19,407 nucleotides of DNA from a virus. Lineage: Duplodnaviria > Heunggongvirae > Uroviricota > Caudoviricetes. The notes under the pieces were generated by a model. It worked only from the letters and a program-made list of their open reading frames with translations. It made no database searches and was not told the DNA's origin. Positions 577 through 19,108 of the stretch are shown here, in pieces. The DNA lies in the IMG/VR virus record IMGVR_UViG_2619619132_000004; one strand, 5' to 3'. Positions within the stretch are counted from its first letter, which is position 1. The number at the start of each line of letters is the position of its first letter. The translations under genes were made by a program, and so were the position numbers.

Positions 577-2013
577 TCAGTTTTCCCTGGCTTTATTGAG
601 TTCCTCCCTCAGTTCCTGGTATTTCGTTTCTACAGATGAGACATTTTCCAGTGATTGCGTGTCCTCATTATGTTTAACTGGAATTTCTTCCACTGATTCA
701 GGCGCTGCCTGTTCATTAGCCATTGTGTCCGATGTTTGTTGCTTTTCTTCATCGCCATGTTTTCCTTCTGCTGTTCCGCGCTGCGGCATCGGTGCTGATG
801 AGCGACCGCAGGCAATTTCCACGATTTCCGGATCCGGGTTAGCGTGATCGGTTTCGGTCAACACTTTGTTGAGATATTCAGTCACGCGTGCCGGGATGGC
901 CTCAATGCCGATTGGTGCTTCTTTCACGGAAGCCACCACAATGGCGCGGGAATAATCCAGCCCACCGGGCATGGCGATAAATTTGTCGCGAAAAACAGAA
1001 AAGGGCGGCTTATTCTCTGACACGATTTCTTCAACGCGTTTTGCGTGTGCTGGGTGCAGGTTATAAATATCCACATCCATTGAACGGGCCAGAACGCCGG
1101 TGGCTACATCTCGTGCGAGTGATGTCTTATCATGTTTGAATCCTTCACCACGATCGGTAATATTTCCGCCGCCAGCGTTAGCACCGGAAGGCGTACGGGT
1201 AATGCCTGAAACATAATTTCCGTTCTGCCATTCTTTTGTCAGCAGGCCCTGATCAAGGTAGTCAGTTTTCATCCAGGTGGAAATGAACTTGTCGAATTCA
1301 GCCGGGCTGATGCGATGATTTGCAGAGTGGGGGAATGCTTTCCCTACAGATTCAGCCAGGCGACTAAGGTGATAGTTCGTCAGTTTATCCAGTTCATGAT
1401 GCGCGGCGCGCACAGCAGTAAGCAGGCTCTGAAGGTAACTGTCCTCTGTGTCCATCTCCATACGGATCACGTTATTGCGTTGTTCTGGTGTGGCATGATG
1501 CCGGTATTTTCCATCTTCATCTTTGCTGAATAAGAAGAGGTGAAGGAAGCGATGAGTAAGGCTCAGAGTGGCGACGGGAATTTCACACTCAGAACAGTCA
1601 TCGTCGCTGTCCGGGGATTCGTTTTTCTCCACATCATCCGGAATAGTTCCGTCCGGGTCATCGTTGTCATCGCCAGCAGTTGTGGCATCTTCACCGTTGA
1701 TGTTGTCATTGAAGGGTATAGCCATCATGGTGATGCCATCTTCCCCGCCTTTTTCATAGCGGTTGCAGAATTCAGTATCAAACACGCCTTCCGGTGGAAG
1801 GTCATTCACGACGGGGAAATTTACGCGAACGGGTTTTTTGAAATCATCCTCGTCGTAGCCTGCATCGTCCATGGCTGCAATGCAGCGGGAAACTGCGACA
1901 GAAAGTTTTCTGGCATCAGCCCAGAAAAAACCGCCTTTGATGCCAAGGCGTTTTCTGACTTTATCGTTTTTTGCTTCGCAGTGTAGTGCAAAAGTCTGTT
2001 TATCAGCGCTCAT
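577..2013 (-). CDS. recE: Exodeoxyribonuclease VIII (RecE)-like protein, N-terminal about 478 aa only; 3' end replaced by IS terminus
   Basis: Long stretches match Rac RecE as I recall it (NFPVVNDLP; [16 protein letters not shown]; [16 protein letters not shown]; [11 protein letters not shown]; YQELRxEL). The stop codon is the terminal TGA of the IS at 577..579, so the nuclease domain expected downstream is absent. RBS GAGG upstream of ATG at 2013. Confidence 0.7.
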
Positions 2014-2120
2014 TGTATTTAAACCTCTGGCTGGATTAGAATTAGAGGCCCTTTGTCTGATTTCTCCGAATACGGTGACGCAGGGAGAAATCCGGTAGCC
2101 TGCGCTGCCGGATTTTTATT

Positions 2121-2507
2121 TCAGTGGAAGGTTGCCTGGTTTGCTGTTTTGTGAGTTGTTTTTCCCTTTTCGTGCTGGCATTCAGAGCAGTCGCACTCAG
2201 AATTTTCTCTTGCAAATTCAAGAGCCTGCGCCAGTGTATGGATTTGTTGTGCTCCAATGTTGCTTCTGACGACTTCACATGCAGCATGAATATATGGGCT
2301 TGGTGTTTTGCCATTTAACCCACATGAAACCAAACGACTGTCTTTATATTCGTTATTTCCAACTTCTGTAAGCACTGAAAAAGAAAATACAAAGTCGATT
2401 TTGTATTCTTTGCATATTTTACTGATGCGTTCTGCAATTTCTTTGAGTTCATTTATTGCATCAGGACTGGTTTCGGAAAATATTTCATTTTGCGCAAGTT
2501 CTTTCAT
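2121..2507 (-). CDS. Hypothetical protein with Cys-rich C-terminus (SECDCSECQHEKGK)
   Basis: 128 aa ORF in the leftward early operon, AT-rich codon usage, weak RBS. No family recognised with confidence. Confidence 0.45.
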   Translation of the reverse strand: MKELAQNEIFSETSPDAINELKEIAERISKICKEYKIDFVFSFSVLTEVGNNEYKDSRLVSCGLNGKTPSPYIHAACEVVRSNIGAQQIHTLAQALEFARENSECDCSECQHEKGKTTHKTANQATFH

Positions 2508-2580
2508 TTTGATTTTTCCGTGATTGATAATTAATGCGGTTTTTATTTCGGCAGATATGGAAGGTGTATTTTATTACTCG

Positions 2581-2802
2581 TCACAACGACTCTGCTTTTA
2601 CGGGTAAGCCATCGCGCCCGATGAAAACTTTAATCATGCAGTCGGTAATGCATGTTTTTGTTGTGAAGTTACGAATATAGAGTTTTCTCTTTTCAATATT
2701 GTTTGCTGAAGCGATATATGTCCGACCTTCATGAAGAACATAATCGCCAGGCGTCACGCACTGACGTGGTATTTCATCAGTTCCGAAGTGATGAGCAATC
2801 AT
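2581..2802 (-). CDS. kilR: KilR-like small protein (73 aa), putative cell-division inhibitor
   Basis: ORF starting [15 protein letters not shown] at ATG 2802 with GGAG RBS 8 nt upstream; 73 aa. Length and position (between recE and the immunity region) fit Rac KilR. Only weak similarity to DicB. Confidence 0.5.
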
Positions 2803-2978
2803 AATTATCTCCATTTTCACAAATGAACTTTGTTGATGCGGTGCCTGGTGCCTCCAGGTGGCGTTAACCAGTTAACAATTAACGCCGGGTCAGGGGACGA
2901 TGACTTTCCGTGACATCCTGTCGGTTTAACTGTTCCGCGTGCGCTGAGCCGCATTCACCGCATCACAAAATTCACTTT

Positions 2979-3040
2979 AAAAAGGGCGGACATCAGCAAT
3001 CGGCAAACCGATATCCGCCAAGGGTTACACACAGCAATGT
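2979..3040 (-). ncRNA. Candidate DicF-like small RNA with intrinsic terminator
   Basis: Minus-strand sequence ...UUGGCGGAUAUCGGUUUGCCGAUUGCUGAUGUCCGCCCUUUUU resembles the DicF 3' half (UUGGCGGUAUCAG...CUGCCGCCCUUUUU) in sequence and architecture. Lies about 180 nt upstream of the KilR-like gene in a 430 bp ORF-free region. 5' end is approximate. Confidence 0.4.
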
Positions 3041-3259
3041 TGTTATTCACAACCGGAAGCGCACGGTCGAAGAAATCTAACGACAATCCTTCTATGGGAA
3101 AGAGTCTTCGCCTCGCGCTTTCGTGTAGTACCCTGGCTTTTCAGGGTAATGTCTGTTCAGTAAAGTGAGAGTGCCGGAACTCACCCGTGTCCGGCGCACG
3201 ATCTCCACCTCACCCGTGGAGAACTCCTCAACTACAAACCCCGTAAGGAGAGTGAATTT

Positions 3260-5237: not shown

Positions 5238-5945
5238 TTACCAGCTATGTGATGACCAGAACACTCGCCCTATGATTCTTACGTTTTTGTAGAATTCTTC
5301 TCTGTTCATTACTTCATCAGGATACTCTTCGCGGTTTATCGATCTGATAATTACCGATGTTGGCGTGGCTATGAGCGTTTTTACCCTTAACAAATCAGCT
5401 TGGCAAATTGCATATGTTTTACCATCCCTGATGCTCGTATCTTGCGTGTTTACCCCCACCACATCACCATCATGGAGTGTTGGCTCCATGCTTTGCCCAA
5501 CAACCCTGACCAACTTTGCCGCTTTTTCTGGAACTCCCATTTTTTTCAGGTAATAGCGCCTAAAAACTAGAGAGAATTCTGCGGACTCCTCCAATGCACA
5601 ACTTCCTCCGCCAGCTGAAAGTGAAATATTTAGAAGGGGGAGCGCAACAAATTCGTCATTATCATTTTGATGATCATCCCAGGCGATAGCTTTTAAAGAT
5701 GATTCCCGAGCATTAGATGGCTCTTCTGCGCTCTGTGGTCTCATTGACCCTATACCAGAGCTTAGCCATTCAGGGCGAACTCTTAACGCGTTGGCTAATT
5801 CGACCATTTTACGTGATCCGGTTGTTTTACCAGATGACATCTTTTGTATGGCTGGTTGTGATACCCCCACCATGTCTGCAAGTTGTGCTTGTGACAACCC
5901 GGCTGAACTCATGGCGGCATTTAGTCTTTCTGCGAATGTTTTCAT
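5238..5945 (-). CDS. cI: CI-type prophage repressor (N-terminal HTH, C-terminal S24 LexA-like peptidase)
   Basis: HTH segment LSQAQLADMVGVSQPAIQKM; Ala-Gly cleavage site (SLSAGGG); GQSMEP serine motif and downstream Lys. Divergent from cro. Confidence 0.85.
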   Translation of the reverse strand: MKTFAERLNAAMSSAGLSQAQLADMVGVSQPAIQKMSSGKTTGSRKMVELANALRVRPEWLSSGIGSMRPQSAEEPSNARESSLKAIAWDDHQNDNDEFVALPLLNISLSAGGGSCALEESAEFSLVFRRYYLKKMGVPEKAAKLVRVVGQSMEPTLHDGDVVGVNTQDTSIRDGKTYAICQADLLRVKTLIATPTSVIIRSINREEYPDEVMNREEFYKNVRIIGRVFWSSHSW

Positions 5946-6946: not shown

Positions 6947-8029
6947 ATGCGTAATTACGCAACAATTTCACCTCAGTTCTGGTTAGGCGATACAGGGCGA
7001 AAACTCAGGAAGTCTGGTCCGGAATGTATGGTAGTGGCGTTGTATATGATGACCTCGCCTCATTCCAATATGCTGGGCCTTTATTACCTGCCTGTTTTGT
7101 ACATTGCTCACGAAACCGGACTTGATCCTGAAGGGGCTTCTAAGGGGCTTCAAATGGCTTGCGAGGCTGGTTTTTGCAGCTATGACCATGATTCTGAGGT
7201 TGTATGGGTGCATGAAATGGCAGCATGGCAGGTTGGTGAATCGCTGAAACCTGGCGATAACCGTTGTGCTGGGGTAAGAAATGAATATTCCGCGTTGCTG
7301 GAAAATCCTTTTTTATCATCCTTTTATGATAGATATAAGGATGATTTCCACCTGGATGTCAGACGTGAATCATGTCGGAAAATTGAAGCCCCTTCAGAGC
7401 CCCTTTCAAGCCAAGAACAGGAACAGGAACAAGAACAGGAAAGGGATAAAACCCTTCTGGTCCATGGCGAAAAAATCGCCACGGACCCACAGGGGGATTT
7501 TTGTCCTGTTCTGACTGAACGTCCAGGACCAGCTGGCACGACACCGGAAGCAGATTCCGGGCGTTGTGTGCAGCAGGTGCTGATCGTCGAACCGGAGCAA
7601 CAACGCCAACCGCAGCAGCCTGAAGCCGATTCCGCGATGAGCGGGAAGCCGATTGGGTTAACCCGGGCGATGCCGGGACCGTCTGCGGGACGAGTTGATT
7701 ATCCTGACGTGTTCGAACGGGTCTGGCGTGAATATCCGCATCGGGCAGGGTCAAACCCGAAGAAATCCGCGTTCAATGCCTGGAGGGCCAGATTACGCGA
7801 AGGGGTGTCACCGGATGTCGTGCTGGATGGCGTGAGGCGTTACGCAAGATACCTGGAGGCTACCGGGAAAGCGGGAACTGAATTTGTTCAGCAGGCATCG
7901 ACGTTTTTTGGCCCGAACAGGAATTTCGAAAATCCGTGGTCGCTGCCGAAGGCTGGCGCAGTCAGCCTGCGTTGCGTGAATCACATTTCTGAACCGGACA
8001 CCGAAATTCCGCCGGGTTTCAGGGGGTAA
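6947..8029 (+). CDS. Phage replication initiation protein (functional analogue of lambda O), 360 aa, with internal EQ repeat
   Basis: GAGGGG RBS before ATG 6947; sits between cII and the DnaC-like loader; contains the repeated segment 7603..7688 and an (EQ)n run at 7411..7440. Confidence 0.6.
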   Translation: MRNYATISPQFWLGDTGRKLRKSGPECMVVALYMMTSPHSNMLGLYYLPVLYIAHETGLDPEGASKGLQMACEAGFCSYDHDSEVVWVHEMAAWQVGESLKPGDNRCAGVRNEYSALLENPFLSSFYDRYKDDFHLDVRRESCRKIEAPSEPLSSQEQEQEQEQERDKTLLVHGEKIATDPQGDFCPVLTERPGPAGTTPEADSGRCVQQVLIVEPEQQRQPQQPEADSAMSGKPIGLTRAMPGPSAGRVDYPDVFERVWREYPHRAGSNPKKSAFNAWRARLREGVSPDVVLDGVRRYARYLEATGKAGTEFVQQASTFFGPNRNFENPWSLPKAGAVSLRCVNHISEPDTEIPPGFRG

Positions 8030-8035
8030 TCAGCC

Positions 8036-8776
8036 ATGAAAAACATTTCGACAGGAGGGATTCTTGAACGGGTGCGCCGTCTGGCACCACCGCACGTGGC
8101 AGCACCGTTCCGGACGACCGACGAATGGCGGGAATGGCAACTGGCTGAGGGCCGTAAGCGCAGCGAGGAAATTAACCGCCTGAATCATCAGGCGCGGGTT
8201 GAAAAAATCCTGAACCGTGCGGGCATCCAGCCGCTTCACAGGAAGTGCTCATTCGGGAACTACCGGGTGCAGAACGACGGTCAGCGCCATGCTCTGAGCC
8301 AGGCGAAATCCATTGCCGATGAATTGATGACCGGTTATACAAACTTCGTGTTCAGCGGGAATCCGGGAACCGGAAAAAATCATCTGGCGGCGGCTGTGGG
8401 TAATCGTCTGCTGAATGCCGGTAAATCCGTGATAGTGGTCACCGTGGCGGATGTGATGAGCGCGTTACATGCCAGCTATGACGACGGACTGTCAGGGGAA
8501 AAATTTTTGCGTGAACTGTGCGAAGTGGACCTCCTGGTTCTTGACGAAATTGGCATCCAGCGTGAGACGAAAAACGAGCAGGTGGTACTGCACCAGATTG
8601 TTGACCGCCGGACGGCATCACTGCGCAGTGTCGGGATGCTGACAAACCTGAATCATGCCGCAATGAGCAAGCTTCTTGGTGAGAGGATTATGGACCGGAT
8701 GACCATGAACGGTGGTCGTTGGGTGAATTTTAACTGGGAGAGCTGGCGGTCAAACGTTGGACGTCAGGGTATGTGA
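8036..8776 (+). CDS. DnaC-like helicase loader / IstB-type ATPase (246 aa)
   Basis: Walker A GNPGTGKNHLA and Walker B LLVLDEIG; GGGGG RBS; immediately downstream of the initiator gene. Confidence 0.85.
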   Translation: MKNISTGGILERVRRLAPPHVAAPFRTTDEWREWQLAEGRKRSEEINRLNHQARVEKILNRAGIQPLHRKCSFGNYRVQNDGQRHALSQAKSIADELMTGYTNFVFSGNPGTGKNHLAAAVGNRLLNAGKSVIVVTVADVMSALHASYDDGLSGEKFLRELCEVDLLVLDEIGIQRETKNEQVVLHQIVDRRTASLRSVGMLTNLNHAAMSKLLGERIMDRMTMNGGRWVNFNWESWRSNVGRQGM

Positions 8777-10624: not shown

Positions 10625-10704
10625 TCTGGCCTGAAGCCTTTGCAATTACAGGCGTTGCTATAGCTATTGATTTTTTAGTATATGTTATTTGTCGGTGGGG
10701 GTAA
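10621..10704 (+). CDS. Possible small hydrophobic peptide (27 aa)
   Basis: ATG overlapping the upstream stop (ATGA); MIWPEAFAITGVAIAIDFLVYVICRWG; single predicted transmembrane helix. Confidence 0.25.
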   Translation: MIWPEAFAITGVAIAIDFLVYVICRWG

Positions 10705-10739: not shown

Positions 10740-10844
10740 ATGTCGGATGATATATCACTGGCAATGGAAGGTGCGCTGGCTGTTATTGCTGTTGTGGGCG
10801 TTTACTGCCTGGTTGTGTTTTTGATGGATCGACTAGGGAACTGA
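10740..10844 (+). CDS. Possible small hydrophobic peptide (34 aa)
   Basis: AAGGAGGG RBS before ATG 10740; MSDDISLAMEGALAVIAVVGVYCLVVFLMDRLGN. Confidence 0.3.
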   Translation: MSDDISLAMEGALAVIAVVGVYCLVVFLMDRLGN

Positions 10845-10984
10845 ATTCATTACGATATGGGAATTCCCATATCGGGTAAAAACGGTTTGCGGTAAAGCGA
10901 GAGTTAAGCAGAATTGCTGCGGGTGCTTGAGGCTGTCTGCCTCGGGCATGCCACCGTAAGGCAGACAGAGAAAAACCCCAGTTA

Positions 10985-11050
10985 ACATTACGCGTCCTGC
11001 AAGACGCCTAACATTAATCTGAGGCCAATTTCATGCTAGACACATGTAGG
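10985..11050 (-). ncRNA. Sok-like antisense RNA (type I antitoxin); approximate position
   Basis: Placed by analogy with hok/sok loci, antisense to the mok start and hok leader. Boundaries not determined from sequence. Confidence 0.35.
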
Positions 11051-11245
11051 TTAGCCTCTTACGCGCCGAAAGGCAAGGAGAAGCAGGCTATGAAGCAGCA
11101 AAAGGCGATGTTAGTCGCCCTGATCGTCATCTGTATTACCGTCGTAGTGACGGCACTGGTAACGAGGAAAGACCTCTGCGAGGTACGAATCCGAACCGGT
11201 CAGACGGAGGTTGCTGTCTTCACAGCTTACAAACCTGAGGAGTAA
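11033..11245 (+). CDS. mok-like overlapping reading frame (in frame with and containing hok)
   Basis: ORF track 11033..11245 begins upstream of hok in the same frame, as in hok/sok loci. Confidence 0.5.
   Translation: MLDTCRLASYAPKGKEKQAMKQQKAMLVALIVICITVVVTALVTRKDLCEVRIRTGQTEVAVFTAYKPEE
11090..11245 (+). CDS. hok: Hok/Gef-family type I toxin (51 aa)
   Basis: MKQQKAMLVALIVICITVVVTALVTRKDLCEVRIRTGQTEVAVFTAYKPEE matches Hok (transmembrane helix then RKxLCEVRIxxGxTEVAAF). Leader 10921..10968 resembles the R1 hok mRNA 5' end; the 5' element UGCGGGUG (10918..10925) is complementary to the 3' element CACCCGCA (11303..11310). Confidence 0.85.
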   Translation: MKQQKAMLVALIVICITVVVTALVTRKDLCEVRIRTGQTEVAVFTAYKPEE

Positions 11246-11313
11246 GAGACCAGGCGAGGGAGAAATCCCTCGCCACCTCTGATGTGTCAGGCATCCTCAA
11301 CGCACCCGCACTT

Positions 11314-11336
11314 AACCCGCTTCGGCGGGTTTTTTC
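11314..11336 (+). terminator. Rho-independent terminator of the hok mRNA (CCCGC-UUCG-GCGGG then U7)
   Basis: GC stem with UUCG tetraloop and T-run. Confidence 0.8.
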
Positions 11337-11454
11337 ACGTACTGTGGTTGTGAATACGATTGGTATTAGGCTATGCTAACAACATTAGCCTGACTAATTT
11401 TGTATTGACTTGATTTTTGTTAAAGAACAGGACGGAGAAGTAAGGGTACACCCA

Positions 11455-11634
11455 ATGAGCTACGCACTAAAAAAACACCCGCGATTGACTATTCCCCCTC
11501 GCGATAAAAGCGTTGTGGCAGCTCCGCGCCCGGCTATCGATGAAAATTGCACTCATCGTGAGCAGGTGAAAAATGCTTTCGATTTCGGTTTTTCTCGTTA
11601 CGAGAAGGCAATGGAAGAACTTTCAAAAGTGTAA
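11455..11634 (+). CDS. Small protein upstream of the Doc-family toxin; putative cognate antitoxin (unclassified, 59 aa)
   Basis: ATG 11455; stop 18 bp before the toxin start; no similarity to Phd noticed. Confidence 0.45.
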   Translation: MSYALKKHPRLTIPPRDKSVVAAPRPAIDENCTHREQVKNAFDFGFSRYEKAMEELSKV

Positions 11635-11652
11635 TGATGGGTATTGTGCTCT

Positions 11653-12138
11653 ATGGCTGAGATTGTTGAAGGAGTGCACTACCTTTCGTTTGATGATCTT
11701 ACCGAAATTAATCGCCTTTTAATTGAGCTTCAAACACCAGATGAACCTGTTAGTGTGCTGAGTGTTGATAATTTAAGTTCTTCTCAGTCTCGTCCCAGCA
11801 TGGTTCGATGGTATGAACAGACTAATGACATGTTTGTACTGGCATCAGTATTGATTGAAAGTCTGATTCAGAATCATCCATTTGCTAATGCAAACAAACG
11901 AACAGCTATGATGGCTGGTTATGTCTTCTTGTTGTTGAATGGCTATGAGTTAACAGCACCAGGCGATGAAATCGTGGAAATGGCAGAGGGACTGGCCTGC
12001 AAAACCTATACTCGAGAAGATCTCGAGAACTGGTTGTGTTATTGGTCTCGTGCGTATGACAGCCGGGAATTATGTAAAACAGGCGCAACTATTGTTTTGT
12101 ATGAAACTATCAAGCTTAAAATAGAACAGCAAAACTAA
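11653..12138 (+). CDS. Fic/Doc-family protein with Doc-type motif HPFANANKR (putative toxin, 162 aa)
   Basis: Motif HxFx(D/N)(A/G)NKR present as HPFANANKRTAMMAG; followed by a terminator at 12156..12178. Confidence 0.7.
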   Translation: MAEIVEGVHYLSFDDLTEINRLLIELQTPDEPVSVLSVDNLSSSQSRPSMVRWYEQTNDMFVLASVLIESLIQNHPFANANKRTAMMAGYVFLLLNGYELTAPGDEIVEMAEGLACKTYTREDLENWLCYWSRAYDSRELCKTGATIVLYETIKLKIEQQN

Positions 12139-12155
12139 AGGTGCTTCTAATGAAA

Positions 12156-12178
12156 ATCCGCTTCGGCGGGTTTTGTTG
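12156..12178 (+). terminator. Rho-independent terminator (CCGC-UUCG-GCGG then UUUUGUUG)
   Basis: Same stem-loop core as the hok terminator; lies between the convergent Doc-like gene and the HTH antitoxin gene. Confidence 0.65.
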
Positions 12179-12188
12179 TATTGGAGTA

Positions 12189-12506
12189 TCATGATATTAC
12201 TTGGATCCCGTTTTTCTCTACGACTGAAAGAAGGCGAAGAGCGGCACCTCCCGGCCGTTTTACACCACGTTCCCAGTCTGATATCAGGTTTTTACTGACG
12301 TTGAGGTATCTGGCAAAAACAGGTTGAGACAGATGCTCTCGTTCGCGCAGTGCACGGATCCTTTCCGGAGACATTACCGGCGCTGGCTGGAGACAAGTTT
12401 CATCGAATTCTCGCATAGTCTGTTTCGTTACTGCGCCGATATCATGAAGCGATTCCATCATTTCATGTACGGATGCAAGCGCATCACTGCGGTAATTTTT
12501 ACTCAT
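12189..12506 (-). CDS. HTH (XRE-like) antitoxin of a HigB-2/HigA-2-type toxin-antitoxin pair (105 aa)
   Basis: GGAGG RBS before ATG 12506; C-terminal HTH segment; immediately downstream of the toxin gene on the same strand. Confidence 0.65.
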   Translation of the reverse strand: MSKNYRSDALASVHEMMESLHDIGAVTKQTMREFDETCLQPAPVMSPERIRALREREHLSQPVFARYLNVSKNLISDWERGVKRPGGAALRLLSVVEKNGIQVIS

Positions 12507-12560
12507 TGGGTACCTCCGTAAACTGACCCTGTAGAATCAGTTGTGCCAGTTGTTCATCTG

Positions 12561-12869
12561 TTAGATTGAGTACGTGAGGAGCCCCTTCCGAAATGCACTT
12601 TCCTCAGTAGCGGTTATATTTTCACGTTCATTTTTTGCGTATGCATATACGAAAAAGGCCCTTGTGCCGACGCGATAGAAAATGATTGTGCGATAACCGC
12701 CAGATTTGCCGCCACCGACTCGTGGCAGACGTTGCTTGATAACGCCGTTACCCAGGTTTGCTGAGATAAGCCCGTTATCAGCCTGTTTAACAATTTCGCG
12801 CAGTGACTGGTCGGATATTTTGTTTTTGTGTGCAAATCGCTCAAACCAGGCGTTTTTAAAAATGCGCAT
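12561..12869 (-). CDS. RelE/HigB-2-like toxin (102 aa)
   Basis: Motifs GGGKSGGYRTIIFYR and FVYAYAKNERENI resemble Vibrio HigB-2 (GKRGGSRIIYYF...YGKNEMSDL); toxin-first operon order. Confidence 0.65.
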   Translation of the reverse strand: MRIFKNAWFERFAHKNKISDQSLREIVKQADNGLISANLGNGVIKQRLPRVGGGKSGGYRTIIFYRVGTRAFFVYAYAKNERENITATEESAFRKGLLTYSI

Positions 12870-12886
12870 TTTTTTGTTCCGTTATT

Positions 12887-12911
12887 AATGTATAACACAT
12901 AGTATTACATT
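12887..12911. promoter_or_regulatory. Inverted repeat AATGTA-N13-TACATT just upstream of the HigB-like toxin start; putative autoregulatory operator
   Basis: Perfect 6 bp arms seen in sequence, 18 bp upstream of the toxin ATG (12869). Confidence 0.4.
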
Positions 12912-12937
12912 GCGTAGGGATCTGCAATGCCATCAGT

Positions 12938-12967
12938 TTGACAACGTCGCGTATCCGGGATTATATT
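12938..12967 (+). promoter_or_regulatory. Sigma70-like promoter: TTGACA (12938..12943), 17-18 bp spacer, TTATAT/TATATT
   Basis: Consensus -35 hexamer and AT-rich -10 at canonical spacing. Confidence 0.5.
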
Positions 12968-12973
12968 CATCGC

Positions 12974-13056
12974 ACGCCAGCAAAATCTGGCGTCGGGATT
13001 AGGAACCCCGGATAGAAACCGCGACAGAGACACGCCGCGAGCGTGTTTTTTATTGT
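12974..13056 (+). ncRNA. Candidate small RNA or attenuated leader (about 80 nt) ending at an intrinsic terminator
   Basis: No ORF; 5' hairpin CGCCAG-CAAAAT-CTGGCG (12973..12990); terminator ACACGC-CGCGA-GCGTGT then U6 (13030..13051); downstream of the promoter at 12938. Confidence 0.4.
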
Positions 13057-13214
13057 CGTATGCACACGCACATCTGAATTATGGTGGGGCGTATAGGGGA
13101 GCTGAAAAGCTCGCCGGTTGGTTTCCCGGTAGTTCCTAACCCTGTACGTCTCGCCACCCGATGATTAGGAACCTGACGGTGGTGATAGTTTAGAAACCAC
13201 TCGAGGGCGTCATT

Positions 13215-13886
13215 ATGACAACTCAAGTTTCTGTTGAAACACTCTCCACGATTACTTACAAGCAGATCCCCGTTATCACTACCGAACTTTTGGCGCACCT
13301 TTACGGCACAGAAGCTATTCGTATTCGCCAGAATCACCACGAAAACAAAGGTCGTTTCATTGAGGAAAAACACTTCTTCAAACTTGAAGGTGAAACTTTA
13401 CGTGAGTTCAAGCACAGAGTAGCTTTTAACTACTCTGTGAAAATTGCCCGTAACGTTCGCTCCCTCATCCTATGGACAGAACGCGGCGCAGCCCGTCACG
13501 CAAAAATGCTCGAAACTGATCAGGCGTGGGAGGTATTCGAAAAACTGGAAGACTGCTATTTCAGCCAGGGAAAAACAGCACCAACCGAACAGCAGCCGCA
13601 GATTCAGCCACAATTCACAGCCGAAGAAATCATCCTCCTTTGCTACATGCAGCTCTGGATGGAAAAAGCCCAGGACCTCAGCAAACACCTGTATCCCATT
13701 ATGAAAGAGCTGAACTCCTCATACACGAACAAGCTGTATGACATTGCGTTTGAGACCATCTACATGGTGACGAAGAACAGAGACGCGCTACTAAGGGAGG
13801 TAACACGTCTCGACATGTCAAGTTCCATTATCCAGCGGGCCATGCCAATGCTGAAAAGCCTGCGGGCAAGACAATTTGAATTCTGA
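13215..13886 (+). CDS. ORF6N-domain antirepressor-like protein (223 aa)
   Basis: GAGGG RBS; N-terminal region resembles ORF6N/Ant-type antirepressors of lambdoid prophages; own terminator downstream. Confidence 0.6.
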   Translation: MTTQVSVETLSTITYKQIPVITTELLAHLYGTEAIRIRQNHHENKGRFIEEKHFFKLEGETLREFKHRVAFNYSVKIARNVRSLILWTERGAARHAKMLETDQAWEVFEKLEDCYFSQGKTAPTEQQPQIQPQFTAEEIILLCYMQLWMEKAQDLSKHLYPIMKELNSSYTNKLYDIAFETIYMVTKNRDALLREVTRLDMSSSIIQRAMPMLKSLRARQFEF

Positions 13887-13940: not shown

Positions 13941-14351
13941 ATGAACCAGACTATCTTCCTCCGAAGTAAGCAGCAGCAACAATTTGCCATTAACGCCATC
14001 CTTGCAACAACTCTCGATAAAGACAAACCCGTTACGATCCGCATCACCGATTACAAGCGGAATCTCGATCAAAATGCCAAATTTCACGCGATGGTCGCTG
14101 ATATCTCCCGACAGGTTCAGTGGTGCGGCAGATGGCTAAAACCAGAACAGTGGAAAGTTTTGTTAATCAGCGGACATGCCGTGGCTACAAAACAGGAAGC
14201 TGATGTTTTGCCAGGTCTTGAAGGTGAATACGTCAATATCCGCGAAAGCAGTGCGCAGATGAGCGTGAAGCGTATGGCAAGCCTGATTGAGTACACAACT
14301 TCCTGGGCTGTGGAGCAGGGTGTCAGATTTACCGACAGGAGGTATGAATGA
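13941..14351 (+). CDS. ninB: NinB recombination protein
   Basis: Similarity to lambda NinB ([25 protein letters not shown] versus lambda LDQNRKLWACLGDVSRQVEWHGRWL). Confidence 0.8.
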
Positions 14352-16851: not shown

Positions 16852-17114
16852 TATCCGTTCAACGGGAATGTTACATACCTCACAATTAAGTCAGTTGAAT
16901 GTTGTCTGCCCGGATGAGAATTTGTTAGAAAAAACTGCATGGTGAATCCCCCTGAGCGGAGGGGCGACTGGTGACGGTATAATCTCTGATTATCAAAACG
17001 AGAATGACGCGGGTTTAGTGGCACCGGGCTGAACTCACCGGGAGGCACCCGGCACCATGCAATGGCACATAGCGCCACTCTCCAGCCCCTCTCCGGAGGG
17101 GCTTTCTTATGGAC

Positions 17115-17335: not shown

Positions 17336-19108
17336 ATGGCATTTAAACACTATGATGTTGTCAGGGCGGCGTCGCCGTCAGACCTTGCGAAACGAATAAC
17401 TCAAAAACTGAAGGAAGGGGGGCAGCCTTATGGTAGTGCGCTGATTTCGACAGCTGGTTATGGTGCGGAGTTCATCCAGCCAGTTGTGAGTGAGGGGAGC
17501 ATCTCATCACCAGAGGAGCCAGGCAACCGTCCGACGACCTCAGCGCCTTCTGTTGCGCCAGAATATTACTATGTGATCGCGCTTGCTGGTCAGTCCAATG
17601 GTATGTCATACGGTGAGGGACTGCCATTACCGGATACATTCGACAGCCCTGATCCACGTATTAAACAGTTAGCGCGTCGCAGTACGGTGACACCGGGCGG
17701 TGCAGCATGCAAATATAACGACATCATTCCGGCGGACCATTGTCTGCATGATGTGCAGGACATGAGCCGTCTTAACCATCCGAAAGCGGACCTGTCAAAG
17801 GGGCAGTACGGAACCGTGGGGCAGGGGCTGCATATCGCCAAAAAACTGCTGCCGTTTATACCGGCGAATGCGGGCATTCTGCTGGTTCCGTGCTGTCGTG
17901 GTGGTTCAGCGTTCACCACCGGAGCTGATGGCACATACAGTGACGCGAGTGGCGCCTCGGAGAATTCAACCCGCTGGGGTGTGGACAAGCCGCTGTATAA
18001 GGACCTTATCGGTCGAACAAAAGCGGCACTGGAGAAGAACCCGAAAAATGTGCTGTTTGCCGTGGTGTGGATGCAGGGGGAATTTGATTTTGGCGGTACG
18101 CCGGCAAATCATGCCGCACAGTTTGGTGCGCTGGTTGATAAATTCCGTGCAGACCTGGCGGATATGGCAGGCCAGTGCGTCGGTGGCTCTGCTGGCGGTG
18201 TTCCCTGGATATGCGGGGACACGACGTATTTCTGGAAGCAGAAGAACGAATCCACGTACCAGACGGTGTACGGCAGCTATAAAAATAAAACGGAAAAGAA
18301 TATCCATTTCGTACCGTTCATGACCGATGAGAACGGGGTGAATGTGCCGACGAACAAACCGGAAGAAGACCCGGACATTCCGGGTATCGGTTATTACGGT
18401 TCGAAATGGCGTGACAGCTCAGCCACCTGGACGTCACAGGACAGGGCGAGCCATTTCAGTTCATGGGCTCGCCGTGGGATTATTTCCGACCGTCTGGCAA
18501 CGGCGATTCTGAGCTGCGCGGGTAAGTCTTCTGCGTTTGTTAATGGTACTGCCGGGGTGGTTGTTCCAGACAGACCGGTTACCACCTCAGAGTCTGTAAT
18601 TTTTTACGATGCCAAAAAAGCTACAGACAATCAGCTGAAACCCTATGGCTGGGACGGTGTGTATGGCAGGCGCACACTGGTTGATGACAGCGGCAATAAA
18701 GCTCTGCGAATTGAGAAAAATAACAGCGCGAAATCCTGGTCAATGTACTGTGATATTGCTGCAGACAAGGCAAAACTTTTACTGGAAAAAGGCGGGGAAA
18801 TTGCTGTCCGGTTTAAAATCCCCGAAAACGTCAATCTTGAGACAACCAGAAACAAGTATGCCTTTGGTTTGTACTGGCGAATAGCGGAATGGCCGGGTGA
18901 GGGTGGTGAAGGCCATCTGAGTTCTTTCTTTGTCCAGACAGATAAAGCCAGTATTAATGTTGCATACCATCATACAGTTAATCAACAAAAAGAACTTGGC
19001 ACGTTTGGCGCATTCGACCATGACTGGCATACGCTTGCATTTAAATTTAAGGGCAGTAACAGCATTAATGAACCGCCCCGGGTTTCCTGGAGAGTGTTTT
19101 ATCTGTGA
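17336..19108 (+). CDS. NanS-p-like SGNH/SASA-family sialate O-acetylesterase, 3'-truncated by IS insertion
   Basis: GGGAGG RBS; GQSN motif (IALAGQSNGMSYGEG) typical of SASA/SGNH esterases; position downstream of Q as for nanS-p in Stx-type prophages. The last 13 codons and the stop lie inside the IS that begins at 19069. Confidence 0.65.
   Translation: MAFKHYDVVRAASPSDLAKRITQKLKEGGQPYGSALISTAGYGAEFIQPVVSEGSISSPEEPGNRPTTSAPSVAPEYYYVIALAGQSNGMSYGEGLPLPDTFDSPDPRIKQLARRSTVTPGGAACKYNDIIPADHCLHDVQDMSRLNHPKADLSKGQYGTVGQGLHIAKKLLPFIPANAGILLVPCCRGGSAFTTGADGTYSDASGASENSTRWGVDKPLYKDLIGRTKAALEKNPKNVLFAVVWMQGEFDFGGTPANHAAQFGALVDKFRADLADMAGQCVGGSAGGVPWICGDTTYFWKQKNESTYQTVYGSYKNKTEKNIHFVPFMTDENGVNVPTNKPEEDPDIPGIGYYGSKWRDSSATWTSQDRASHFSSWARRGIISDRLATAILSCAGKSSAFVNGTAGVVVPDRPVTTSESVIFYDAKKATDNQLKPYGWDGVYGRRTLVDDSGNKALRIEKNNSAKSWSMYCDIAADKAKLLLEKGGEIAVRFKIPENVNLETTRNKYAFGLYWRIAEWPGEGGEGHLSSFFVQTDKASINVAYHHTVNQQKELGTFGAFDHDWHTLAFKFKGSNSINEPPRVSWRVFYL

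Follow-up and report, generated by a model that had tools for sequence, protein, structure and literature searches.

The hokW/mokW/sokW locus of Stx phage 933W and the Sakai prophage Sp5 was shown experimentally to be a type I toxin-antitoxin (TA) system, and deletion of hokW-sokW halved the release of Sp5 after mitomycin C (PMC8621323). The Phd-Doc modules of phage P1, Salmonella, and Enterococcus faecalis are type II TA systems in which Doc is a kinase of EF-Tu. The Doc-specific motif is HXFX(D/N)(A/G)NKR (PMC13034048). HigB2-HigA2 of Vibrio cholerae and ToxP/AntitoxP of Coxiella, which belong to the PF06296 group of the RelE superfamily, have the toxin gene in first position, and the active-site residues of V. 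cholerae HigB2 (VcHigB2) are K49, R51, R64, Y82, and K84 (PMC5416850; PMC10098735). Relatives of all three kinds of system are stacked at positions 10921-12869 of a 19,407-nucleotide stretch of viral DNA (Caudoviricetes; IMG/VR virus record IMGVR_UViG_2619619132_000004), the whole of which is called the window here. The stack consists of a hok/mok/sok locus, a Doc gene preceded by an open reading frame (ORF) of 59 residues, and a convergent HigB-2/HigA-2-type pair. We consider it probable that this is an accessory slot built from cassettes, with three self-contained TA modules of which hok/mok/sok and Doc are intact and the HigBA-2 module is decaying, and that the Doc cassette was inserted between two copies of a terminator.

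The evidence for assembly from cassettes lies in two hairpins with UUCG tetraloops that a preliminary description of the window, made from its letters, had called near-identical. The likeness proved to be exact over a 17-mer, CCGCTTCGGCGGGTTTT, which occurs at 11317-11333 and 12158-12174 (two copies in the window vs none expected from 200 shuffles), and with its flanks the repeat matches at 19 of 20 positions, the copies being 841 nucleotides apart. Terminator 1 (11314..11333, plus strand), the left copy of this 20-nucleotide direct repeat, is a hairpin followed by a run of T. It was missed by the terminator scan, whose rule extends the stem into the T run, and was confirmed by folding. Terminator 2 (12155..12174), the right copy, is located between the convergent Doc and higA genes and folds with -14.6 kcal/mol on the plus strand and more weakly, -6.1 kcal/mol, on the minus strand. 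In O157:H7 PV15-279 and in strain GE3 the 3' end of hok leads through a single terminator copy directly to the end of higA, while in the window matching flanks are split by one terminator copy and the 841-bp Doc cassette (alignment A2). In three other contexts, which have different sequence downstream, the Doc cassette likewise closes with this hairpin, and the G+C content of Doc is 39-42% vs 46-52% in its surroundings. From these comparisons we infer that the 841-bp Doc cassette was inserted at the hok-higA junction of an arrangement that is still found in O157:H7, and that cassettes are exchanged at the shared terminator. The mechanism of such an exchange is a matter for speculation, with short-homology recombination by a phage recombinase as one example. 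The shared terminator is denoted by the sequence CCGCTTCGGCGGG.

The slot is the left border of the nin region in a lambdoid Escherichia coli prophage, with replication genes (DnaC-like), DUF1627, DUF977, and DUF551 on its left side and ninB on its right side. The preliminary description had three TA loci of different types lying together in a piece of the nin region about 2 kb long, and this description largely holds: all five ORFs were found at or near the coordinates given there, and each family assignment is backed by profile searches. The DNA of the stack is 99.4-99.8% identical in a lambdoid prophage of 34 out of 5426 complete E. coli genomes, including O104:H4 outbreak strains. Across the same genomes, 217 have the higBA module and 125 the Doc module, and those 34 have all three modules together. 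At the same position, related prophages carry hok with higBA, hok with Doc, higBA alone, or all three, a distribution by which the slot is clearly accessory and variable in its occupancy. The stacking of TA cassettes around this Doc module recurs outside E. coli, since a Salmonella enterica prophage (GCA_011585245.1, 2496-5009 of the locus) packs Hok, the small ORF with Doc, ParDE, and VapBC into about 2.5 kb. The Doc cassettes of E. coli O6:H16 (about 2440-2470 of the locus) and Salmonella (about 2950-2975) have another upstream region, with the palindrome GCACTAAtTTAGTGC or a near copy of it. This palindrome, which is absent from the Doc cassette of the window, could be the operator for a regulator.

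The stack is not new, because RefSeq names exist for all three toxins in identical prophages, among them the one in the O104:H4 strain of the 2011 outbreak. The labels there are 'type I toxin-antitoxin system toxin HokD' for hok, 'hypothetical protein' for the 59-residue ORF, 'type II toxin-antitoxin system death-on-curing family toxin' for the Doc gene, and 'helix-turn-helix domain-containing protein' and 'type II toxin-antitoxin system RelE/ParE family toxin' for the third unit. Literature searches returned no paper on this particular stack or on the 59-residue ORF. What goes beyond the existing annotation is the broken third toxin, the undescribed partner of Doc, and the cassette structure bounded by terminators.

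The first unit was correctly identified as a hok/sok locus in the preliminary description, which had it start at 11033 and end at 11336. Position 11033 is the start codon of mok, and the locus begins about 110 nucleotides further upstream because the match to the Rfam sok family (RF01794; 110 bits vs a gathering score of 59) starts at 10921 and runs to 11095. Despite its name, this family models the sense-strand leader. The full-length hok mRNA (10921..11336, plus strand) has a tac-like 5' end and an fbi-like element near its 3' end, and it ends in terminator 1. When the 417-nucleotide transcript 10921-11337 was folded (-174 kcal/mol, z -7.4), its 5' end, GGGUGCUUGAGG, paired with the region just before the terminator, which is the tac/fbi closure typical of hok mRNAs. 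The mok frame (11033..11245, plus strand, 70 residues) overlaps hok (11090..11245, plus strand, 51 residues) in the same frame, the layout annotated for mokW and hokW of 933W. Hok peptides have about 50 residues, a single transmembrane segment, and a conserved Cys. The match of Hok to Pfam HOK_GEF (1.4e-23) covers all 42 positions of the profile, and Hok also belongs to PHROG 251 (3e-32) and has 84% protein identity to HokW. A Sok-like antisense RNA is placed provisionally at 10971..11041 on the minus strand by mapping from the annotated sokW (1572-1642 of the 933W locus). The candidate RNA is predicted to fold into a long hairpin that is preceded by a single-stranded 5' tail and followed by a U tail (-28.8 kcal/mol, z -5.4), and a possible promoter for it, TTGCCT-17-TAACCT, was seen by eye and was not called by the consensus scan.

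The hok/sok DNA is 91% identical to hokW/sokW of 933W over 418 nucleotides, and the two loci share the mok-hok overlap, the position of the antisense RNA (a candidate in the window), and residence in a lambdoid prophage. They differ in that the 933W locus lies near the right end of the phage genome, whereas the locus in the window lies at the junction of the replication and nin regions, and homology between them stops at the terminator stem. The hok/mok/sok unit looks complete. By analogy with hok/sok of R1 and with hokW/sokW, the stable hok mRNA would be held closed by its 5'-3' pairing, translation of mok and hok would be blocked by short-lived antisense Sok RNA, and upon decay of Sok, Hok would damage the inner membrane. 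Just upstream is a hydrophobic ORF of 34 residues (10741-10844; 'hypothetical' in RefSeq) followed by a perfect 22-nucleotide palindrome, CGATATGGGAATTCCCATATCG, at 10853-10874. The ORF and the palindrome are bracketed by the 10-mer GGTAAAAACG at 10700 and 10877 and may be a small inserted cassette.

The second unit, which the preliminary description gave as a Doc-family toxin with a small upstream ORF at 11455..12138, is confirmed with refined starts: the small ORF extends from 11455 to 11634, and for Doc the likeliest start codon is the ATG at 11653, as in RefSeq, so that the Doc gene (11653..12138, plus strand) encodes 161 residues. Doc scores 122.2 bits against NCBIfam TIGR01550 (DOC_P1; curated cut-off 38.65) and 44.4 bits against Pfam Fic (3.1e-11; cut-off 24), and it falls into PHROG 577, 'Doc-like toxin' (1e-50). 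Its best sequence matches in the PDB are E. faecalis Doc (9vzc, 1e-12) and P1 Doc (1.2e-4). The translation reads HPFANANKR from H75 to R83, an exact fit to the Doc-specific motif, and the catalytic motif is intact. The Doc of the window resembles the known Doc proteins in family, motif, and the presence of a small gene immediately upstream, but it is longer by about 30 C-terminal residues (161 vs 126). The module is best read as an intact two-gene type II module, in which Doc would act as a kinase that phosphorylates EF-Tu and stops translation.

The third unit is a convergent pair in which a HigA-2-like antitoxin/repressor is intact and a HigB-2-like toxin gene is a remnant. The preliminary description had the families right and missed that the toxin ORF is not intact. 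The antitoxin (12189..12506, minus strand, 105 residues) has an N-terminal segment that is predicted to neutralize the toxin and, at its C-terminus, a domain of the helix-turn-helix (HTH) kind, as does HigA2. The HTH_3 match (1e-7) spans residues 50-94, and among the sequences of the PDB the best match is to V. cholerae HigA-2 (7.9e-8, residues 45-99). The toxin gene remnant (12499..12869, minus strand) matches PF06296 with 7.2e-38 over positions 1-95 of the 120 in the profile only. A 1-nucleotide deletion at 12583/12584, evident in the DNA alignment (A1), removes the last 28 residues (96-123), and the open frame that is left, 12561-12869, encodes 102 residues, of which 95 are native and 7 are out of frame. 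In a tblastn search with an intact relative, P0018, the gene likewise falls into two pieces in different frames, residues 1-96 and 95-123. The relatives in O157:H7, PK8241, and 2013C-3033 are intact, with 123 residues and a stop codon that overlaps the ATG of the antitoxin. Full-length HigB-2 or PF06296 toxins were defined by a length of 120-129 residues and a stop overlapping the antitoxin start, a definition that leaves out the gene of the window.

In the 25 other sequences of alignment A4 the C-terminal block that is lost here, AAxHVLxLTDEQLxxLIxxGQFSEV, is conserved. It accounts, in the P0018 model (pLDDT 87.7), for half of the helix at 87-101, all of the helix at 105-113, and the strand at 117-119. 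The label HigB-2-like is right, since the ten best Foldseek matches of this model are all VcHigB2 (probability 1.0, TM 0.5-0.6). Thus the unit resembles HigB2-HigA2 in its toxin-first gene order, in the fold of the intact relative, and in the five active-site residues, with K45, R47, R60, Y77, and K79 aligning to those of VcHigB2, all of them upstream of the frameshift. It differs in that the toxin is frameshifted and lacks residues 96-123, and the intact members of the family are longer than VcHigB2 (110 residues), with two C-terminal helices and a final strand. Frameshifts have occurred repeatedly in this gene. A frameshift near residue 15 is found both in the O104:H4 copy, where it comes on top of that of the window, and in PhiR12_3, where it is the only one. 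In strain GE3 the frame is broken near residue 33, and in strain 23CRST047 near residue 98. In 8 of the 8 loci compared, by contrast, the antitoxin is full length and in a single frame. Such a pattern is to be expected of a TA module in decay, in which the toxin goes first and the antitoxin/repressor stays, and we read the HigBA-2-type module in this way. In its intact form the HigB-2-like toxin would be a ribosome-dependent mRNase. The HTH antitoxin probably persists as a repressor and may also neutralize related toxins.

The preliminary description had further assigned separate regulatory regions to the three units. Intergenic spacers are indeed present, but neither for the Doc unit nor for higBA did the consensus scan yield a strong sigma-70 promoter. 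By eye, the candidate for higBA, TTGCAG-17-TACTAT, is weak, and nothing good was seen for Doc. The putative promoter and operator region of higBA (12870..12935, minus strand) contains the conserved CTATGTGTTATA and corresponds to the conserved 5' flank in alignment A1. Independent regulation of the units is plausible.

What do these modules do for the prophage or its host? The computed evidence does not distinguish among addiction, anti-phage defense, and a role in phage lysis or release. A serious alternative, which we hold tentatively, is that the modules are morons or addiction cassettes of a selfish kind, which persist by being difficult to lose and spread through recombination, and that the stack arose as a side effect of a junction prone to recombination rather than as a selected function. 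Each cassette occurs independently of the others, the common terminator at cassette ends marks an exchange junction, and decay of a toxin with retention of its antitoxin fits a module that drifts after fixation. No broken hok or Doc module was seen in any locus examined, however, which suggests that at least these two are still under selection.

It is somewhat unlikely, but deserves consideration, that the modules serve the life cycle of the prophage itself, for example by having Hok speed lysis and phage release after SOS induction, as for hokW-sokW of Sp5. The identity of the window's locus to hokW-sokW and of its Hok to HokW, together with the reduced Sp5 release that follows deletion of hokW-sokW, speaks for such a role. 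The role has been demonstrated for hok in a different prophage only, though, and nothing comparable is known for Doc or HigBA-2.

TA modules can provide phage defense, and the preliminary description had proposed an addiction or abortive-infection island in a prophage accessory slot. An active island of this kind would work when an invading phage shuts off host transcription, so that, with the decay of the labile antitoxins, the toxins kill the cell or arrest it before the invader has finished its cycle. The accessory slot stands, its variable, combinatorial content is typical of defense hotspots, and the Salmonella prophage packs its TA genes densely. Prophage hotspots of defense genes have been described (PMC9122126; PMC9519451). 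A scan of the five proteins and the neighboring antirepressor with the models of PADLOC-DB v2 gave no significant match to any known defense system. The weak matches were those of the HTH protein to RmrA and a control protein (best E = 1.3e-5) and of Doc to PDC-S23 and PDC-S05 (E 0.002 or weaker). One of the three toxins is frameshifted, and the recurrent inactivation of HigB-2-like genes in the relatives argues against strong selection on that module as a weapon. In addition, the closest hok relative to have been tested, hokW-sokW, aids phage release after induction and not defense (PMC8621323). We regard an active defense island as unlikely and return to the slot as a set of self-contained cassettes, for which the partner of Doc has still to be accounted for.

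On the evidence of its conservation and gene neighborhood, the 59-residue ORF (11455..11634, plus strand) is a real gene and a putative Doc antitoxin of an undescribed family. Its sole family membership is PHROG 2208, which has no assigned function, and profile searches returned no Pfam, NCBIfam, PADLOC, or PDB match. The profile search of the PDB gave nothing below E = 0.19, and its top entries, ribosomal protein S25 (0.19) and a RES-domain protein (1.1), were taken as chance. Several known types of antitoxin were considered and set aside, and that the ORF is not of the Phd type had escaped the preliminary description. A BLASTP comparison with P1 Phd gave no alignment; membership in Phd/YefM (PF02604) or possession of another known DNA-binding antitoxin fold was rejected on the absence of a Pfam or NCBIfam match and of a folded N-terminal domain in the model; the Fic alpha-inh motif, [S/T]xxxE[G/N], was absent on inspection by eye; and a ribbon-helix-helix fold, hinted at by the string RLTIPP, was not borne out by the model, which lacks the strand-helix-helix arrangement. 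AlphaFold2 predicts one helix at 34-57 (block-mean pLDDT 84-94 over residues 31-59), leaves the first 33 residues without regular structure, and shows no DNA-binding fold.

The relatives of the 59-residue ORF form a small family. A word-based search found 17 close homologues, and 39 matches came out of a full HMMER scan over 1.84 billion representatives. Of these, 37 are 38-95 residues long, and the two long ones (1274 and 2917 residues) are repetitive partial matches. No relative fused to a DNA-binding domain was found among the same representatives by profile search. Two blocks are conserved in the family, (R/K)L-x-IPxRDK at the N-terminus and QVxNAFxxxFxRYxKAxxELSKV at the C-terminus. Besides the window, members of the family lie directly upstream of a Fic/Doc gene in five contexts, namely the baseplate region of an Ewingella myovirus, a Salmonella prophage, a locus adjacent to dinI/umuDC, a chromosomal locus beside a LysR regulator, and a metagenome contig, and in these contexts protein identity falls to 41-52%. 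Because the ORF travels with Doc across contexts and has conserved blocks, it is probably the cognate Doc antitoxin, in a family distinct from Phd/YefM and without a DNA-binding domain. If that is the case, Doc would be inhibited by a largely unstructured protein with a single conserved C-terminal helix, and any transcriptional autoregulation of the module would have to work otherwise than through a DNA-binding partner.

In the Phd-Doc systems the partner is of the Phd/YefM or AbrB type, whereas the partner in the window has no Pfam or PDB match, lacks a predicted DNA-binding domain, and carries the conserved N-terminal IPxRDK motif. A small antitoxin without a DNA-binding domain is not without parallel, as PaaA2 is one, and it too comes from a lambdoid prophage, being part of the paaR2-paaA2-parE2 module of the O157:H7 prophage CP-933P. 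Its toxin partner, ParE, is of another family, and it has a separate regulator gene, PaaR2, whereas the Doc cassette shows no third gene. The paaR2-paaA2-parE2 module is covered in PMC8630535. There is also a resemblance to Phd, though no evidence of homology, in the spacing of the hydrophobic residues of the predicted helix, F42, F46, Y49, M53, and L56, which end 3 residues from the C-terminus. The hot spots of Phd are F56, I59/M60, H63, L67, and L70 (PMC9207808).

Four points weigh against the interpretation given here of an accessory slot with an inserted, two-gene Doc module and a decaying HigBA-2 module. First, one relative of the 59-residue ORF, P0153 (50 residues; in a lambdoid prophage, 2001-3090 of the locus), has no Doc gene after it, and what follows is an unrelated 261-residue protein with no Pfam match, which could be a different toxin that partners the same antitoxin family, or P0153 could be an orphan. 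Second, the 59-residue protein has no detectable similarity to Phd or to any solved structure, and its antitoxin role is read from gene neighborhood alone. Third, one insertion event need not have produced both terminator copies, which could be ancestral to their respective cassettes or have arisen by convergence. Fourth, the truncated HigB-2-like protein keeps all of its catalytic residues and may have residual activity; among RelE-family toxins there are some that are naturally without the C-terminal helix (PMC5416850). That the 59-residue ORF is no antitoxin at all, being instead a peptide that serves as a leader or in regulation, or a small and unrelated phage protein, beside a Doc-like protein that is not a partner-requiring toxin, would accord with its lack of homology to known antitoxins in the searches and with the absence of Doc downstream of P0153, but it is improbable in view of its place close beside Doc in the window and five further contexts, six independent ones in all, the conserved length and two conserved protein blocks, and the intact catalytic motif of Doc as read from its sequence (PMC13034048).

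Other features of the window place the stack in its surroundings. A CI-like repressor (5238-5945) and replication genes (6947-8776) precede the slot. To its right, a near-consensus promoter, TTGACA-18-TATATT, at 12938-12967 is directed away from higBA, and it is followed by an isrK-like small RNA (12974-13051, 69 bits) and a C4-type antisense RNA (13077-13161, 66 bits), just upstream of an ORF6N/P22_AR_C antirepressor (13215-13886). The unit formed by the antirepressor with the isrK-like and C4 RNAs resembles P1 immI or Gifsy-1 isrK-anrP, and ninB (13941-14351) lies beyond it. Further along, a full-length match to the small RNA STnc100 (16909-17114, 165 bits) lies upstream of a gene for a SASA-family sialate esterase (17336-19108), an arrangement that is usual for the late region of Stx-like lambdoid prophages, downstream of Q. 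The left edge of the window has an ALIL pseudoknot, a frameshift signal of the IS3 family, at 128-244 on the minus strand, and the RecE/ExoVIII-like ORF at 577-2013 has only 478 residues, which suggests that recE was truncated by insertion of an insertion sequence.

The stack itself is ordinary, being made up of three well-known toxin families, and its overall interest is modest. The HigBA-2 unit provides a natural example of TA module decay, with repeated toxin frameshifts and an intact antitoxin/repressor, and the sequence-level evidence of cassette exchange at a shared terminator helps to explain the build-up of accessory and defense hotspots in lambdoid phages. A bolder proposal, to which we give somewhat less than an even chance, is that the 59-residue protein (PHROG 2208) founds a minimal class of Doc antitoxins, disordered apart from one C-terminal helix and marked by IPxRDK, and that the identical UUCG terminators serve as short homology joints for the combinatorial shuffling of TA modules at the replication/nin junction in lambdoid phages. 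If this is true, it would be a Doc module without the autoregulation by conditional cooperativity that defines Phd-Doc, and a Doc toxin paired with a mini-antitoxin that lacks a DNA-binding domain could be used to test how much of the regulation of Phd-Doc is needed.

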